Shown here: positions 29,225 through 48,561 of the stretch, piece after piece | How the letters are laid out: each line of letters starts with the position of its first letter | Numbering within the stretch: position 1 is the first letter of the stretch | Origin: Lingula anatina | Lineage: Eukaryota; Animalia; Brachiopoda | Assembly (NCBI GenBank): GCA_051362555.1 | Contig: CM120641.1 | Location: 34,292,401 to 34,356,400, forward strand | DNA: 64,000 bases | Direction: 5' to 3' | The notes under the pieces: model-generated | Databases searched by the model: none | The model's input: the letters and a program-made list of their open reading frames with translations, nothing else | Told to the model about the DNA's origin: nothing | Made by a program: the position numbers and the translations under genes

Positions 29225-31571
29225 TTAGGACCGACGGTGTAAAACCGGTCGGCGAAGCACTGGCTGTTCTCTAGCACGTAGACGTCTGGCAGGATGGCGA
29301 AATTGTGGGCAGGATGGTGCTGGCTGCTGTGGTGGTGTTGGCACTAAAGGTGGCAAGAACCTGTCGTTCTGGTGTTGCCTGATGGTTGCGCTCTGGCGAG
29401 TCACTGGCCTGGCTTGTGCTGATGCAGGTGCTGGGGTCGCGGGTCTCAGGGGTGGCACATATGGTGGTGGGAGGGCACCTGCGGCTGGTTGCTGTGGTGG
29501 TGTTGGCACTAAAGGTGGCAATAACCTGTTGTTCTGGTGTTGCCTGGTGGTTGCGCCCTGGCGAGTCACTGGCCTGGCCTGTGCTGATGCAGGTGCTGGC
29601 GTCGCGGGTCTCAGGGGTGGCAGAAATGGTGGTGGGAGGGCACCTGCGGCTGGTTGCTGTGGTGGTGTTGGCTCTAAAGGTGGCAATAACCTGTTGTTCT
29701 GGTGTTGCCTGGTGGTTGCGCCCTGGCGAGTCACTGGCCTGGCTTGTGCTGATGCAGGTGCTGGCGTCGCGGGTCTCAGGGGTGGCAGAAATGGTGGTGG
29801 GAGGGCACCTGCGGCTGGTTGCTGTGGTGGTGTTGGCACTAAAGGTGGCAATAACCTGTTGTTCTGGTGTTGCCCGATGGTTGCGCTCTGCCGAGTCACT
29901 GGCCTGGCTTGTGCTGATGCACTCGCAAAAGCAGGTGCTGGTGTCGTGGTTCTCATGGGTGGCAGAAATGATGGAGTGAGGGCACCTGCGGCTGGTGGTG
30001 TCGGTGAGCCTTGTCTGCCGTTTGGACTACGCAGAGCGGTTGCTGCCTCTGGCTGGTGAGGTGTGGTAGTCAGGCGTGGCAGAGAGTGTGGTGTCTGGCC
30101 GTTGACGGAACCAGGCCTAGTGAATACCGACTCTTGCCGTACAGGTCTTGGCGTCAGGGGTGTGAGGGGCGGCAGCAACGATGGCGGAAGGGCACCTGAG
30201 GCTCTTGGCAAGTCCTGTCTCAGATTTAGACTATGCAGAGGGGCCATTGCCTCTGGCTGGCGAGGTACTGCAGCCAGGCGTGGCAGAGAGAGTGGTGTCT
30301 GCCAGCTAACGGTACCACCCCTAGTGGATACTGCCTCTAAACTTGCTACTGCTGGTGTCGATGGTCTTAGGTGTGGCAGATATAGTGGTCTCTCTCCGTG
30401 GCATGGTCTCCACTGACTTGTGGCCGTTTCTTGCAGAGGAGCTGAAGTCTGCTGTGGTGGAAACTGTAGGGTCAGCATGCGATCATGAGTACTCTCAGTG
30501 TGCACTCTGATTTTAGGGGGTGGGGATGGGACCAGACTTGGCATAGCCTGTGCTGCAAGGCCACTTGGGGGAGTCCGTATACCAGTCTTTTCATCTTCCT
30601 GTGGAGTGTCAGACTCCGGCAGATGCTGCAATTGTTGCTCGGCATCTGGGTTTAACTCGGCCACTCTGAACGCTGCGCGTGCCCTTCGTATGGAGGCGAG
30701 TGTTTTTATACATGTCAGATATTTGGGACATGGTCTTTGCTGAATTGGGGCAGGCTCCGAGGGTGGACAAGGAAGTTTGGTGTCGCTGCTTCTGCAGACC
30801 TGCTTGTGAGCAAGGTTAGGCGGTGCGGGAGCCGCTGAAGTGGATGATAGAGCCAGTGCCCGATGTACTGCCCTGGAGTATATTTCTGACCTGAGGCTGA
30901 ATCTAGTGGGAGTATCTTGTACCGAGTTGGGGATCTTAGCTGTTCTTGGTCTGGAGCTTGATCCGTTACAAGCTGACGACGGTAGAGGCGCCTGTGTCCG
31001 CCTAGGGATCCTTGAAGGAATTGCTGCCGACTTGGCATTATTTTGTGCTGGGCTGGTGACCCTGGATGCTGTGCGGCTTGAACCAGCAGCACTTGGCGGG
31101 CCGGTAGCAATATGTGTCGGCGCGGGAATCCTCGATGGTCTGAGACCATGCCCAGTAGCACCCTTCGGCTGAGGCTCAATAACAACAGAGGCCAGCCCTG
31201 GAGTACTTGATGGTCTGCGTGGCCCGTCAAAGCCAGGTGCTAGAAGAGCGTCTTCTTCTTTCTCATCGGGCACATTACCCAATGCGTATACCCAGAACTT
31301 CGCCGTCTTTAATTTCTTGTCAAGCTTGCGAATATAAAGAGGCAACGGCTGTGTATGTATCTTTTTTCTTTTGTCTGGAAAAGTAAAAACATTGTTTTTG
31401 TTTATAGACAAACTGTTGCCACTGGCCTTTCTCTGTACAAAATTTGAGTTTTTAACAGTGTATAGGCCATTTGGGTATCTACGTACGTATATTGTGTGCT
31501 AAATGCGAAAGCGTGCAATAATGAGTGTGCCCTACGTGTTCTAAGATATGTAATGAAGCAAAATTCCATTC

Positions 31572-37984: not shown

Positions 37985-38550
37985 TGCCACCTCTCCAATG
38001 AAATGGACTCATCTGACATCCCCTTCAATAGAATGGACTTAATTCACCTATCACCCTCGAATGGAATGGACTTGCCCAACCTGACACCCCTTCTGATCAA
38101 ATTGCCTCGTCCCACCTGACACCCCTAATTTTGAATGGACTTGCCCCACCTGACACCCCTTCTGATCAAATTGCCTCGCCCCACCTGACACCCCTTGTTT
38201 GGAATGGACTTGCCCCACCTGACACCCCTTCTGATCAAATTGCCTCGCCCCACCTGACACCCCTTGTTTGGAATGGACTTGCCCCACCTGACACCCCTTC
38301 TGATCAAATTGCCTCGCCCCACCTCACACCCCTTGTTTGGAATGGACTTGCCCTACCTGACCCCCCCCCCCTGTAATAGAATGGACTCGCCCCACTTGAC
38401 ACCCCTTTCCAATGGAATAGGCTCGACCCACGTGACACCCCTCAAATGGAATAACCTCGCCCAACCTGACACCCCTCAGATGAAATGGACGTGGTAAACC
38501 TGACTCCTTTTTCAATGTTATGAACTACAATGGAATGGACTCACTCCACC
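37985..38550. repeat. Minisatellite with a 69-bp dimeric unit and degenerate ~32-35-bp monomers on the flanks
   Basis: ggaatggacttgccccacctgacaccccttctgatcaaattgcctcgccccacctgacaccccttgttt repeated about 4 times (period 69, e.g. 38201 to 38270). Confidence 0.92.
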
Positions 38551-41859: not shown

Positions 41860-42055
41860 GCTGAAAAACTAAAGGGTTAAAAACCATAGATTATTCATAT
41901 GCAGGAAATCGTCAGTCATGTGCAGCCCCCCCCCCCCCCCCCCAAAAAAAAAAAAAAAAAAAAACATGGGCAAGCAATTCATTCAAAGGTGCCTAGGTAA
42001 AAGTTAACACCCATTCACACAGAGACAGTATATATCCTGAAACATTTTTTCAGTC

Positions 42056-42374
42056 TGTTACGAATAAGCAAACTTCTTTAGTCTTTTTCACATCTATTTT
42101 ATTTGCTTGTCATTGAAATTGTCACGTAGAAACTGAAATGAACAAAATACATCAAATTAAGAAATTATCCTTAAATTATGTTACAATTACAGCTTATAAA
42201 GTTCTTATTAACTGTTTAAATTACTAAATGATTCATAAAGTCTTACCTCATTGCGGGAATTAGTGTCTTTTAGTGATCAGAACATAACTAACTATAAGCG
42301 CGTGCTCTAGTCAAAAAAGTAAAACGCTATCTCCACCGATGTGCATAACAGCTAAGACGGGCCAAACCTTAACA
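42056..42374 (-). repeat. 3' LTR
   Basis: TGTTA…TAACA ends; identical by eye to 47899-48217. Confidence 0.97.
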
Positions 42375-42664
42375 TGGCTCCCCTAAATTGTGAAAGCAAT
42401 TTACACAATATACACTGTTTACCTTATCATTACGTATAAAAAATATTTGCTCGGAAATTATTAAGAATTACCGTACCTTAATCAACTTTAAGGAACATCA
42501 AAACTTACTGTTAATTACTGTATTTAAACATAAAATACCTTGCAATCCCATAAACACAAATAGCCCAACATTTAACTGTCTTTAGAAAACAAAAGTGTTC
42601 ATTAAATCTACACAAACTGTAGCATAGAATCATAACAAACTAACACTATTGTCACAGTTAACAG

Positions 42665-45600
42665 TTATTTTGGCTCCTCGACGGGGTCTTCTCCGGTCAA
42701 TAAAAGAATTAACTTGTGCACTGGTCTCTCATATGTAGAGTCCCTAACTTTCAACTTGACCTTACGCACATATCCATCTGCACTTTGAAAGGTTTCTACT
42801 ATGCGACCAAGTGGCCACTGATTTCTTGGTGCACTGTCATCTATCATGAGAACAATATCTCCAACTTGTACATCTCTACATTGTTTGATCCACTTTTTTC
42901 TCTCTTGTAATGTAGGAAGAAATTCCTTTCTCCACCTGTTCCAAAATTCATTGGCTAGATATTGAACATGTCGCCATCTTCGATGAAGGTATGTGTCTTT
43001 CCTTATGAAATTCCCAGGTGGTGGCATCACGACCTTAGTTTTCAGGGTCAGGAGCTGATTTGGAGACAAAGGCATTGGAGAATCTGGTGACTGTGTATCA
43101 ATGTAAGTCAAAGGTCTACTGTTAACTATGGCTTCTGCCTCAGTTAACAATGTGGACAAGGAATCATCATCTAAACGGTCACTGTGAGCTGTGAGAAGTC
43201 CTGATAAAGCATTTCTGGCTGATCTGATCATTCTTTCCCACACGCCTCCCATATGTGAAGCATGAGGAACATTCATTTTAAACTGAATCCAGTCACAATG
43301 GTCTTTCAGAAGTTCTCTCCTGATCTTGTCCTGATCCATATCCATAAAGGCAGTTTCTTGCTCTCCCTTAACTCCAATGAAATTGGTTCCACGGTCTGCT
43401 CTGAGTAGACGTACTGGTCCACGCCTGCATACAAAGCGTCTGTAGCAGTTAATGAAAGAATCTGTGCTGAGTGAATACGCAACTTCTATATGAATAGCAC
43501 GTGATGCTAAACATGTAAACATAGCACCATATCTCTTCATCTGCTTTCTTCCCTCCTTCACATAGAATGGTCCAAAAAAATCTACTGCACTGTAGGTGAA
43601 TGGAGGTGCTGGTTCCAGTCTGTCAGCTGGAAGATCTGACATTTTCTGACTCTGTGAGTTTGCTCGTAGCTTACGACAGGTCACACATTTCCATATATAT
43701 GATCCAATCTTGGCACGGCCAGAAATTATCCAATAACCACTAGCTCGGACTTCATTAAGAGTAATGCCACTTCCTGAATGTCCACATCGTGTATGATAGT
43801 GGTCAATTATGAGATTTGTAACATGATGATGCTTAGGCAGAATCACTGGGTGTGTAAGCTCTCTGGGTAGATTTGCCCTCTTTATACGACCACCTACTCT
43901 GAGTAGTCCATCTTCACATAAAAATGGGTCTAAGCGGTATAGTGAACTGGTTTTCTTGATTTGTTCGTTGCGATATCTTGCCTGTTTTCTCTCTGTGTGT
44001 TCACTGTTATCTTCTCTGTTAATTGCTTTCAGTATTGCAATTTCCTTCTCAAATGTAGCAATCTGTGTTGACTTGAGAATGATCTTTTCTGCCACTTGTA
44101 TTTCTTGAACATTCAACGGTTCATTGCTGGTCTCAACTGTGTTCTGCTGTGTAGATTTCCTGTTCTTAGCTTGTTTCAGCTTCTGTATGAATCGTAAACA
44201 CCACGTAACAACTCGTGTTGCTCTGTTCCAGGAAGAAAACCTTTTCAATACATCAGACAAGTGATCGTGGTTGGTTTCTACTTTAGTAGCAAATACATTG
44301 ACTTCAGATTTGCGTACTTCTGGGTCATCTGGTGCTAGTCTGAATTGGGTATCAGTGGTAGATAGTGGTTCATCAATGCGCAGAAAGTCTGGCCCACTCC
44401 ACCACTGTTCATTCTGTAGTAGCTCTGTCACACCTGTTCCCCTGGAGGCTATATCAGCTGGGTTGTCACTGGACTTAACATGCCTCCATTGGGATGGCTG
44501 ACTGACTTCTCTAATTTGTTGTATTCTATTTGCTACAAAGACATGAAATCTCTTAGCATCATTATTGACATACCCTAGAACAACTTTGCTGTCAGTCCAA
44601 TACACATGGGTGATGTCCTCATACTCTAACTCCTTGGCAAGAAAGGTCCCCACCTTTATAGACATCACTGCTGCTGACAACTCTAGGCGTGGGACTGTCA
44701 CTGGTTTAGAGGGAGCTACCTTGGACTTGCCCATAACTAATGTGGTTGCTATTCTTCCTGTGTTGCTTTTAAGTCTCAAGTAACTGCACTGACCTAGGCC
44801 TTCTACACTGGCATCTGAGAAGTGATGAAGTTCTGCAGTAGTCACTTCACCAAAATCATTTGGCTTATAGCACCGTGGTATATTCAACTTGGTTAAGTTC
44901 AGCAAATCTGAGCGCCATCTTTCCCATCTGCATCTAATACTCTCTGGCACTTGATCATCCCACTCTGCACCGTCTCTGCATAGCTCTTGGAGAATTTTCT
45001 TACCGGCAAGGATGAATGGTGAGACAAGGCCTAAAGGGTCAAATATGGAACTTACAGTGGAGAGAATTCCCCTTCTTGTTAATGGCTTATCATTGATCTG
45101 GACCTTAAACTGAAAACTGTCCGCTTCTACACACCACTGTACTCCTAGAGCTGGGCATATTGGCAATGTGTCTCTGTTAAGGTCAATGTTTCTCATTTCT
45201 TTGGCTCTCTCTGACATTGGGATTGTATTCATCACTTCACGGTTGTTTGATACTAGCTTGTGAAGTCTTAGGTTACCTTTGTTCAGCAGCTCTCTTGTTT
45301 CTCTAACAAGACGTATAGCTTCTTCACTTGACTCAATGCTCTTGAGTCCATCGTCTACATAAAAGTCATTCTTAAGAAAGGCAATGACGTCTGGTGAATA
45401 CTCATCTTGGTAGTCCTCTGCTAGTTTCCTCAGTCCATACAATGCGCATGCTGGTGAACTTATCGCTCCAAATATATGAGACGTCATTCTGTATGTGATG
45501 GGATTACTACTGAGGTCACCGTCTTTCCACCATAGGAACTGTAAAAACTTTCTATCCTCTTCTTTCACTTTAAACCTGTGAAACATGTTCTCCATGTCAC

Positions 45601-47812
45601 CCATGATTGCTACTGGCTGCTCTCTAAACCTCAATAAAACACCTATGAGCGAGTTATTCTGATCAGGTCCTTTCAACAGGCAGTCGTTTAGCGCAACATT
45701 TTCATGTTTTGCACTGGCATCAAACACCACTCGTAATTTCTCACGTTTTTTGGGGTGATATACACCATGATGTGGTAAGTACCAACCTCCATCTTCATGA
45801 GGTGATTCTTCTGCATAGCATTTATCTATGAGGTCCTGCATAAAACTGTTATAGTGCTCATAATACTTCGGGTTGTGGATTAGCCTTTTCCTTAGCTGCT
45901 CTAGCCTGATCTCAGCTGCTGGTTTGTTGTTTGGCAATGCTGGATGTCCATCTTTAAATGGTAGTGGCATCTCATAAAAACCCTCGTTGAAATGTATGCC
46001 TTCCTCCATAATCTTCATGAACTTCTGGTCTTGAAGGCTTAACTTCTCATCTTTCTGTTGGTCGAAACCTTGGTCAAAGAGACTGCAAACCTCAGCGGGG
46101 CTGATCTCTGTCACTTGTGTTCTAAAGGCAAAGGCATGTGTTCCAAAGCTCTTGTTCTCATCTATGGGTCTTGATTTGTCCACTGGCCCTACTATACCCC
46201 AACCTAGGTTACATCTGTATGCATATGGCTCCTCTCCTCTACCATGTATGTACTCCAGACCTCTAATGGCTTTCATACAGTTTACTCCCAACAGCAGTCC
46301 TACCTCTATGTCTGGGCGATAAGGAGTAATCTTATCAGCAATTGAGTGCAAGTGTGGCCATTTCTTAGCAGTTTCTGGTCTGGGTATCTGTGATCGCTTA
46401 ACTGGAATGGAGTCTCTGGAGTATGTATCTGGGAGCTCAATCAATGTCTCTTGGTTCAGACCTCTCACAACAAGTCCTCTAACTTTCCTGCTCGGGACGG
46501 TTTTTTCTCCAAGTATGGTTGAAAGTCTGATGTCTACATGCTTCCCTTTACATTCGAGTTCACTGAGGGTCGAGGACTTTACAAAGCAGGCATCTGACTG
46601 CTCGTCTAGTACTGCATATACCACTGAATAAATGTCTGGATTATCCTCGTGGTGTACTACAACTGGCACTATCATGGAATGCACATTCTCAGAACTGTGG
46701 GTGGTATGGCATACAGCTGCTCCCACTACTTTACTAGTGTAATTGTCATCATGTAGAATTGTTGGATGATAAGAGTTACATTTTTGGCATTTCATTTTAC
46801 TTCTGCATTCATGTTTTCTGTGACCATATGCAAGGCACCCAAAACATAACCCATTATTCTTTATAATGCCGATTCTTTCATCCATTGTCTTTTCTTGCAT
46901 TTCTGGGCATTGGTGAAGTTTATGTTGTTCCTTGCATAATATACACTTGTGAACGTGTCTTTCGTTGCTGGATGCAGAGGCACTAGACAGTACTGTTTGT
47001 GCTGGAACTCTTCTCCTTGGTGCTGGTATAGGTCTCTCTGGTGGCGGTGGAACCTTTCCAAAAATGGGGTCAGCCAATTTTCGTGCTTCTTTCTGCACAA
47101 AATCGACGAAAACCTGAAAGGTTATCTTCTGTCCCCTTTCCTTCCTTTCATATACTATGCTTCTCCATTTATCATGCAATTTGAGCGGCAGCTTCGTCAT
47201 TAGCCTCTTAAGGTTATCGGGATACTCGAGGACTGGAATGGCATCTATTTCTTTTACTGCATATTCACATTCCCTTAAAAATATGCCGTATTTGTCTAAT
47301 GCGACATAATCATCATGCTTTATCACTGGCCACTGTAAGGCACGGTTTATATACGATGTCGCAATCTGTTCTTGGTCCCCATACCTTCTCTCAAATTCCT
47401 TCCATGTGGCCTTGAAACCAATGGATGCATCTAAGTGAGCGAATCCTAGCGTAATTTCATGAGGCTCACCTCTGGTGTATTGCAGTAGATAGTTCAGTTT
47501 TTCATCGTCAGAGTCGCATGTTTCTATGATTCTACTTTTGAACTGTCTCTTAAACAGCACATATTTGATCGGGTCACCTTCAAATACTTGAATCTGAATT
47601 CTTGGTTTACTGAGTTCCTTTGCTATCGTAGTTTGCTCACACAAAGTGAGTGGGGCACAAGATGTTAGTGTGTTTTTGGGCGTAGATGTCTTTTTTATGT
47701 TTGACTTTGTGAAGTTAAAATGCCTTTCTAACTCACGCATGGTTTGGTCTATATCCGACTCTACCCTTTTTAGTTCTGCTTGGAGAAGTATCATTTCTGC
47801 TTGTGTTGCCAT
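42665..47812 (-). CDS. Gag-Pol polyprotein (1715 aa): Gag with three Cys/His knuckles, protease, RT, RNase H, integrase
   Basis: Knuckles CILCKEQHKLHQC, CFGCLAYGHRKHEC, CQKCNSYHPTILH; protease AVLDEQS; RT WYLPHHGVYHPKK, LRVVFDAS, FYVDD; RNase H HFSDAS; integrase H-x4-H…CVTC, DFFGPF, DRGTNF, GGVWERM. PR-RT-RH-IN order; no env. Confidence 0.97.
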   Translation of the reverse strand: MATQAEMILLQAELKRVESDIDQTMRELERHFNFTKSNIKKTSTPKNTLTSCAPLTLCEQTTIAKELSKPRIQIQVFEGDPIKYVLFKRQFKSRIIETCDSDDEKLNYLLQYTRGEPHEITLGFAHLDASIGFKATWKEFERRYGDQEQIATSYINRALQWPVIKHDDYVALDKYGIFLRECEYAVKEIDAIPVLEYPDNLKRLMTKLPLKLHDKWRSIVYERKERGQKITFQVFVDFVQKEARKLADPIFGKVPPPPERPIPAPRRRVPAQTVLSSASASSNERHVHKCILCKEQHKLHQCPEMQEKTMDERIGIIKNNGLCFGCLAYGHRKHECRSKMKCQKCNSYHPTILHDDNYTSKVVGAAVCHTTHSSENVHSMIVPVVVHHEDNPDIYSVVYAVLDEQSDACFVKSSTLSELECKGKHVDIRLSTILGEKTVPSRKVRGLVVRGLNQETLIELPDTYSRDSIPVKRSQIPRPETAKKWPHLHSIADKITPYRPDIEVGLLLGVNCMKAIRGLEYIHGRGEEPYAYRCNLGWGIVGPVDKSRPIDENKSFGTHAFAFRTQVTEISPAEVCSLFDQGFDQQKDEKLSLQDQKFMKIMEEGIHFNEGFYEMPLPFKDGHPALPNNKPAAEIRLEQLRKRLIHNPKYYEHYNSFMQDLIDKCYAEESPHEDGGWYLPHHGVYHPKKREKLRVVFDASAKHENVALNDCLLKGPDQNNSLIGVLLRFREQPVAIMGDMENMFHRFKVKEEDRKFLQFLWWKDGDLSSNPITYRMTSHIFGAISSPACALYGLRKLAEDYQDEYSPDVIAFLKNDFYVDDGLKSIESSEEAIRLVRETRELLNKGNLRLHKLVSNNREVMNTIPMSERAKEMRNIDLNRDTLPICPALGVQWCVEADSFQFKVQINDKPLTRRGILSTVSSIFDPLGLVSPFILAGKKILQELCRDGAEWDDQVPESIRCRWERWRSDLLNLTKLNIPRCYKPNDFGEVTTAELHHFSDASVEGLGQCSYLRLKSNTGRIATTLVMGKSKVAPSKPVTVPRLELSAAVMSIKVGTFLAKELEYEDITHVYWTDSKVVLGYVNNDAKRFHVFVANRIQQIREVSQPSQWRHVKSSDNPADIASRGTGVTELLQNEQWWSGPDFLRIDEPLSTTDTQFRLAPDDPEVRKSEVNVFATKVETNHDHLSDVLKRFSSWNRATRVVTWCLRFIQKLKQAKNRKSTQQNTVETSNEPLNVQEIQVAEKIILKSTQIATFEKEIAILKAINREDNSEHTERKQARYRNEQIKKTSSLYRLDPFLCEDGLLRVGGRIKRANLPRELTHPVILPKHHHVTNLIIDHYHTRCGHSGSGITLNEVRASGYWIISGRAKIGSYIWKCVTCRKLRANSQSQKMSDLPADRLEPAPPFTYSAVDFFGPFYVKEGRKQMKRYGAMFTCLASRAIHIEVAYSLSTDSFINCYRRFVCRRGPVRLLRADRGTNFIGVKGEQETAFMDMDQDKIRRELLKDHCDWIQFKMNVPHASHMGGVWERMIRSARNALSGLLTAHSDRLDDDSLSTLLTEAEAIVNSRPLTYIDTQSPDSPMPLSPNQLLTLKTKVVMPPPGNFIRKDTYLHRRWRHVQYLANEFWNRWRKEFLPTLQERKKWIKQCRDVQVGDIVLMIDDSAPRNQWPLGRIVETFQSADGYVRKVKLKVRDSTYERPVHKLILLLTGEDPVEEPK

Positions 47813-47836: not shown

Positions 47837-47898
47837 TCTTTCACTAAATCGTCGCTCAGTTTCTACTATCTTTCACTAAATCGTCGCTGAGTTTCTAC
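47837..47898 (-). promoter_or_regulatory. Non-tRNA primer-binding region: two 30-nt copies (period 32) abutting the 5' LTR
   Basis: Sense strand reads GTAGAAACTCAGCGACGATTTAGTGAAAGA then GTAGAAACTGAGCGACGATTTAGTGAAAGA. No TGG start. Complementary to LTR positions 47969-47979. Confidence 0.7.
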
Positions 47899-48217
47899 TG
47901 TTACGAATAAGCAAACTTCTTTAGTCTTTTTCACATCTATTTTATTTGCTTGTCATTGAAATTGTCACGTAGAAACTGAAATGAACAAAATACATCAAAT
48001 TAAGAAATTATCCTTAAATTATGTTACAATTACAGCTTATAAAGTTCTTATTAACTGTTTAAATTACTAAATGATTCATAAAGTCTTACCTCATTGCGGG
48101 AATTAGTGTCTTTTAGTGATCAGAACATAACTAACTATAAGCGCGTGCTCTAGTCAAAAAAGTAAAACGCTATCTCCACCGATGTGCATAACAGCTAAGA
48201 CGGGCCAAACCTTAACA
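47899..48217 (-). repeat. 5' LTR, with an intron-like segment (48089 to 47976) and a poly(A) signal (47941-47946)
   Basis: Sense GAG|gtaagac donor, ttttgttcatttcag acceptor, and AATAAA about 30 nt after the acceptor. Confidence 0.95.
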
Positions 48218-48561
48218 CAGTCATTGATTTTGATTCACCTCTTCGCTTTTCATCTCTTGCTCTCGTCTCAGGTTTCGGCCTTCCATCATAGTAGTAGTAG
48301 TAGTACATGCCAAGTTAGTAAGTTAGTATATGCGACACTTTTGCAGACCCCCCCTTCCCCCTATTGACGTTTTGGACTCTTGATTTGCATGCTATGCTAA
48401 TACAGAATGTATAACAAAAATTGTAAATAGCAGTGCTAATTTCGTGCTACAGTACCCCCCCCCCCCCCCCCAATAACAACAAGTATTTGATTTCCCATAT
48501 CTCCCCCTTGCAGCATGCACGTCTGACAACTAAGGCAAAGTCATACTCAAACAAAACTTAC

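Follow-up and report, generated by a model that had tools for sequence, protein, structure and literature searches.

A BEL/Pao-type LTR retrotransposon of Lingula anatina likely carries a splice-made, Tf1-like self-primer, for which both cleavage and priming are predicted. The element lies in the window, a stretch of 64,000 nucleotides analysed here, and its LTR contains an intron whose joined exons are complementary to the site of primer binding (PBS) directly beside the LTR. The best explanation of the whole, to which we give a probability of roughly 0.7, is that this junction would prime reverse transcription after a predicted cut, and that a second copy of the leader is likely a private duplicate.

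Structure and classification of the element

The element spans 48217 to 42056 on the minus strand, on which all of its features are read, and window positions 47837–48217 form its 5′ end. The 319 bp 5′ LTR (47899..48217, TG...CA) and the 3′ LTR (42056..42374), which carries the same intron at 42246–42133, differ at 0 of 319 sites. The target-site duplication GACTG was found upstream (48218..48222) and downstream (42051..42055). With an identical LTR pair and a 5-bp duplication, the retrotransposon is young. AATAAA at 47941..47946 is the predicted, likely poly(A) signal, and a polypurine tract with a motif that recurs in relatives precedes the 3′ LTR (42375..42384).

A single gag-pol ORF of 1715 aa (42665..47812) encodes CCHC knuckles (residues 290 and 323), protease (402), RT with YVDD (818) and an HHCC integrase (1338), the BEL/Pao order with integrase after RT. 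The Pfam families Peptidase_A17, DUF5641 and DUF1759 scored above cut-off; the Pfam search of the element returned BEL/Pao families only, with no chromodomain or Ty3/gypsy chromovirus proteins. A search of a viral sequence collection gave no match. A protein named by NCBI as a Lingula anatina protein (P0001) was 100% identical over residues 600–1150, the next matches being at most 58% identical; its differing N-terminus indicates that a second copy or allele of the element exists. Named BEL/Pao clades include Sinbad, Suzu, Sailor and others.

The ICTV description of Belpaoviridae/Semotivirus (LTRs of 0.2–1.2 kb, a genome of 4.2–10 kb, one gag-pol ORF, PR-RT-RH-IN order and a polypurine tract; PMC8742986) is shared by the element, with its LTRs of 319 bp, total length of 6162 bp and polypurine tract at 42384–42375. 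The same description gives an 18-nt PBS for tRNA-Arg or tRNA-Gly. In place of this, the present element and 22 relatives carry a site complementary to the junction; the PBS here starts with GTAG, not TGG, and no TGG-type tRNA site was found at the LTR edge. By its protein, the element is classified as BEL/Pao-type, departing from the ICTV description in its PBS.

An intron within the LTR is spliced in a sister copy

The original prediction described a 114-nt GT-AG intron inside the LTR, and its coordinates, ends and length all agreed with the sequence (47976..48089; donor GTAAGA beginning at 48089, acceptor AG ending at 47976). The donor is the only GT[AG]AG in the LTR, and the acceptor ranked first among 14 AG sites by our own score, so that the intron uses the strongest donor and acceptor of the LTR.

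RNA reads were examined in eight of nine runs from the same species, X9 being left out. Run X4 contained 12 reads with 11 different starts that skipped exactly 47976–48089, with CT..AC ends and a short side of up to 44 nt, which is the 48090/47975 junction that had been proposed as a check. First-mate-plus depth in this run was 14 at 48108 and 0 at three places in the intron, and reads of the opposite direction were unspliced. First-mate-plus was taken as element sense on the basis of internal reads in X1 and the usual library chemistry. Positions 48109 and 48116 held other letters in X4, where 16 reads came loose at 47898 and ran past the LTR end into non-element sequence; we infer that these and the junction reads represent the same molecules. 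Splicing of the intron is thus real, seen for a diverged sister LTR and not for the PBS-bearing RNA. The sister LTR copy likely drives a host transcript elsewhere or is contained in one.

The junction was listed in this one run of the eight and in none of the other seven, of which X7 had 0 reads and X8 had 1 read. Unspliced first-mate-plus reads were present in X2, X3 and X6; in X6 depth fell at the donor and reached 0 inside the intron, below the limit for listing junctions. An ATG at 48094–48092, just before the donor, opens a frame of 2 codons in unspliced and 12 codons in spliced RNA, as read by eye.

The splice junction is complementary to the PBS

Two leader copies start at 47898 and 47866. 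The first 11 nt (47898–47888) of leader copy 1 (47869..47898) abut the LTR, match the spliced junction and constitute the PBS. The last 4 nt (48093–48090) of the exon 1 end (48090..48098) pair with PBS positions 8–11, and the first 7 nt of exon 2, TTTCTAC (47969..47975), complete the match and would be the 3′ end of the self-primer. CGC (48098–48096) can pair with positions 12–14 past a 2-nt bulge. This arrangement of 11 nt, a 2-nt bulge and 3 nt, claimed from the outset, was re-derived from the sequence. Copy 1 pairs over 11 nt with the spliced junction and over 9 nt with the unspliced LTR; in 20,000 Markov-resampled LTRs a 9-nt match occurred in 0.21% and an 11-nt match in 0. The duplex of copy 1 was calculated at −18.5 kcal/mol with spliced and −11.3 kcal/mol with unspliced RNA, and folding placed spliced RNA on copy 1 at P=1.0 for four of four assumed starts.

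Elements of the Tf1/sushi type have been sought by requiring at least 10 nt of the 5′ LTR to be complementary to sequence 0–5 nt past the LTR (excerpts of PMC6317226). The element gives 9 nt by this test in DNA and 11 nt once spliced. Because the full match is absent from the DNA, such elements would escape PBS and self-primer annotation, which the splice-made primer, if true, would explain.

The junction match is conserved in relatives

An alignment of 40 proteins led to 78 fetched loci, of which 26 relatives with a usable LTR and leader were scored; the rest had no LTR or leader, retained just the acceptor side or came from a family already represented. Because scanning for junction matches without constraints produced many false ones, LTR ends were fixed first. 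The ends were set by the repeat pair alone in seven matching relatives (six perfect at 11–12 nt and L069 with one mismatch), from its sister L018 in L019, and by motif in 14 relatives. Eighteen of the fetched loci (L061–L078) are in bacterial MAG records and encode BEL/Pao relatives; they are most likely animal-host DNA.

In 21 of the 26 relatives, 10–14 nt (mostly 11) of perfect pairing extended across the relative's own GT-AG junction, with differing letters, so that the co-conservation of LTR intron and junction-complementary PBS that had been suggested as a check was present in sister families. L069 paired at 10 of 11 nt. L049, L064 and L076 had no junction match, the LTR ends of L064 and L076 being uncertain, and the match of L052, by eye, was contiguous behind a spacer and not at the junction. 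L049 (1–240) and L052 (1–200) belong to a sister lineage with another purine tract, and show a 10–12 nt contiguous (unspliced) LTR match behind a spacer of several bases; this lineage possibly has a different self-priming geometry.

Except in L071, the match follows the LTR without any intervening base (spacer 0). The split of the pairing varies, exon 1 giving 3–7 nt and exon 2 giving 5–8 nt. With the window included, 18 distinct PBS 11-mers were present; positions 3–10 vary and yet stay paired except in one cell (L069), and only 26 of 506 cross-family pairs reached 10 nt. By splice-site scores that were set after the data were seen, no other donor of the LTR scored as high as the paired one in 14 of 23 rows, and in 21 of 23 the paired acceptor took the top rank. 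In RT, the 21 rows of the tree that match show 35–81% identity, and they fall into 20 clusters at 80%. When whole leaders were folded, the junction helix reached P≥0.7 in only 8 of 17 relatives (L014, for which a wrong donor had been taken, was left out). In a tree made by a quick method, the match label did not cluster (5 changes, shuffled mean 5.6); no conclusion was drawn from it because two of the six 'no' rows later matched and two have uncertain ends.

The 3′ LTR of L018 lacks exactly bases 137–672 of L019, a 536-nt intron, and seven other 3′ LTRs keep a donor motif. This intron-less LTR (L018 6695–7103) is 98.5–100% like L019 in its upstream part and 88% like its own 5′ LTR downstream. 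Recombination or a chimeric assembly may account for it, and its source record may be DNA or RNA. Together, the junction reads, the relatives whose junction and PBS match with changed letters, and an LTR that lacks exactly the intron support the claim of the original prediction that splicing creates the priming duplex, priming itself being predicted. From the comparison of relatives, copy 1 is taken to be the ancestral, conserved PBS.

Three other explanations of the match were weighed against these data. The junction-PBS helix could be real and serve a structural role, in packaging, dimer formation, translation control or help for another primer. Covariation shows pairing and not priming, and at least 44 nt precede the junction in the reads, unlike the primer of Tf1, which is the first 11 nt (excerpts of PMC7175516). 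A purely structural helix is nevertheless improbable, since it would have to begin directly after the LTR in all but one relative and mostly to be exactly 11 nt, as in Tf1, at LTR edges where no TGG-type site is found.

The second explanation is that TCAGTT at the acceptor is an initiator. Transcription would start at 47977, the first 9 nt would self-prime as in Tf1, and the intron would be incidental and the two leader copies equal. A TCAKTY consensus is indeed present at 47979, and RNA starting at 47977 folds onto copy 1 (P=0.9). Such a start does not account for the 3–7 exon 1 bases that track the PBS in 22 relatives, for an unspliced match of only 5 nt in five families, or for the junction reads and the intron-less LTR of L018, and we regard it as very improbable. 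In the third, priming is by an internal tRNA fragment, and the complementarity comes second to it. Half-tRNAs are known as primers from copia lineages (excerpts of PMC6317226), but each of the 18 different PBS 11-mers tracks its own junction; no tRNA gene was found within the 64-kb window. This explanation is hardly credible. A splice-made self-primer remains the preferred reading of the match.

The second leader copy

Leader copy 2 (47837..47866) is separated from copy 1 by a 2-nt TA (47867..47868). The original prediction of two 30-nt copies with a single difference held for the difference, at position 10 (C at 47889, G at 47857); the period is 32 nt, and the copies are followed by different bases, TA and CG. 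The G at 47857 makes the first 11 nt of copy 2 match the unspliced acceptor, a pairing that was confirmed on the sequence, and it has no counterpart in relatives. Copy 2 pairs over 9 nt with the spliced junction, at −14.7 kcal/mol, and its duplex with unspliced RNA was calculated at −17.7 kcal/mol.

These matches raise the possibility that both copies function. Spliced RNA would prime on copy 1, and unspliced RNA would be parked on copy 2 without priming at the LTR edge; alternatively, copy 2 would pair with the unspliced 3′ LTR and bring the RNA ends together for strand transfer. The in-silico folding proposed as a check predicted a clean switch, with spliced RNA on copy 1 and unspliced RNA on copy 2 at P=0.83–0.97 for five of five starts upstream of the acceptor (a start at 47977 led to copy 1). 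Each copy prefers its own RNA form by 4–6 kcal/mol, both RNA forms exist, and, out of the 90 single changes possible in 30 nt, the lone difference is the only one that completes the match. The switch was, however, noticed after the fact at a single locus, and a PBS tandem at the LTR end was found in 0 of 29 relatives (best self-match 10–14 of 20, against 19 of 20 in the window). A leader stretch of more than 6 nt complementary to the unspliced acceptor was found in 0 of 18. A GAG exon end is shared by L004, L020, L027 and L047, each of which gets by with a single junction-type PBS. The claimed switch, in which the splicing state of the RNA selects between the two PBS copies, therefore stood for the folding of this element and not for its relatives, and a functional two-copy switch is unlikely. 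Slightly less likely still is the broader proposal that in a wide marine BEL/Pao branch with a spliceosome-built primer the second site captures unspliced RNA here, forming a one-base splicing sensor that decides copying.

The preferred reading is that copy 2 is most likely a private 30-nt duplication whose one altered base is a chance change or derives from an unspliced primer that was copied. The rarity of the change that completes the match and the identity of the LTRs count against an incidental copy 2: with no LTR differences, the G is hard to put down to drift after insertion, and it probably predates insertion or arose during copying. About three reads of run X6 cross the tandem and, at this low number, no difference was listed. 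For the origin of the G, we put even odds on chance or on selection that disfavoured a rival priming site 32 nt from the LTR edge. A more tentative idea is that unspliced RNA once acted as the primer and, through copying, left its sequence in the PBS. Roughly half of Tf1 cDNA ends 3′ in a single-stranded DNA copy of the PBS, through which a primer could come to set the PBS sequence, and the Tf1 RT adds untemplated bases (excerpts of PMC11042837); by this analogy, a 30-nt repeat with 2 extra joining bases would fit an end jump. Retention of the G for a function, as a selected decoy or an end-joining site, is equally tentative, and this functional reading of copy 2 is the least safe because the copy is not conserved.

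Comparison with known self-priming elements

Self-priming has been described for the Tf1/sushi group, and the Tcn1 and TAR lineages are predicted to act likewise (excerpts of PMC4600332 and PMC6317226). In Tf1 the RNA's initial 11 bases pair with the PBS, and cutting by RNase H occurs between bases 11 and 12 (excerpts of PMC7175516). The element resembles Tf1/Tf2, Tj1 and other Tf1/sushi members, which are Ty3/gypsy chromoviruses, in having no tRNA site and a PBS complementary to about 11 nt of its own LTR RNA (excerpts of PMC7175516, PMC4600332 and PMC6317226). It differs from them in having BEL/Pao proteins and an 11-mer that is absent from the DNA and made only by splicing. In the reads seen, which come from another LTR copy, the 11-mer is internal to the RNA, whereas in Tf1 it is the first 11 nt.

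In maize, young elements have been reported to undergo canonical splicing inside their LTRs (bioRxiv 10.64898/2026.05.08.723830). In the available part of that text, the products are LTR-contained non-coding transcripts of unclear role, with no link to priming and 0 occurrences of 'PBS'. A literature search, with subscription journals, Repbase notes and supplements outside its scope, found no description of a splice-made primer or of BEL/Pao self-priming. Term searches of the accessible portions of PMC554778, PMC2774666, PMC6238403, PMC3118150 and PMC11117352 found no discussion of the PBS, and the portion of PMC3601003 available mentions self-priming only as an ancestral idea.

Proposed mechanism

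By analogy with Tf1, we infer the following steps. Transcription would start in the 5′ LTR before the donor, splicing would bring 4 nt from exon 1 and 7 nt from exon 2 together, and the resulting 11 nt would fold onto copy 1. As in Tf1, RNase H would then cut 3′ of the paired bases, here after 47969, and strong-stop DNA of about 70 nt would be made. This DNA would jump to the 3′ end, where U3 and the intron would be copied from the 3′ LTR RNA; for that reason the intron would survive only if the 3′ LTR copy stays unspliced. The 3′ LTR intron would usually be unspliced in the copied RNA, so that daughters keep it, and the intron-less 3′ LTR of L018 may show the other outcome, in which the 3′ copy was spliced. 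A possible benefit would be that the full 11-nt match is limited to the 5′ end of the RNA. Copy 2 would have arisen by the 30-nt duplication. The primer, the cut and the strong-stop DNA are predictions, for which the element gives exact ends, a cut at 47969/47968 and a 70-nt strong stop; no start peak was listed in the RNA runs.

If true, the mechanism would make splicing an obligatory step of reverse transcription in a widespread branch of animal retrotransposons assumed to be tRNA-primed, and the host would gain a control point at the level of splicing. It would also pose the puzzle of how one intron is spliced at the 5′ end of the RNA yet kept at the 3′ end. The natural C/G pair of the two leader copies may record which RNA form primed.

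Other features of the window

Three further features were noted elsewhere in the window. An exon-like ORF on the minus strand at 121–714 matched the middle region of VPS13 (73 bits, cut-off 50). A 757-aa open frame at 29225–31498, without a Pfam match, is made of GC-rich repeats of 165–210 nt. At 38020–38510 there is a 69-nt tandem array with shorter sub-units of 33–39 nt.
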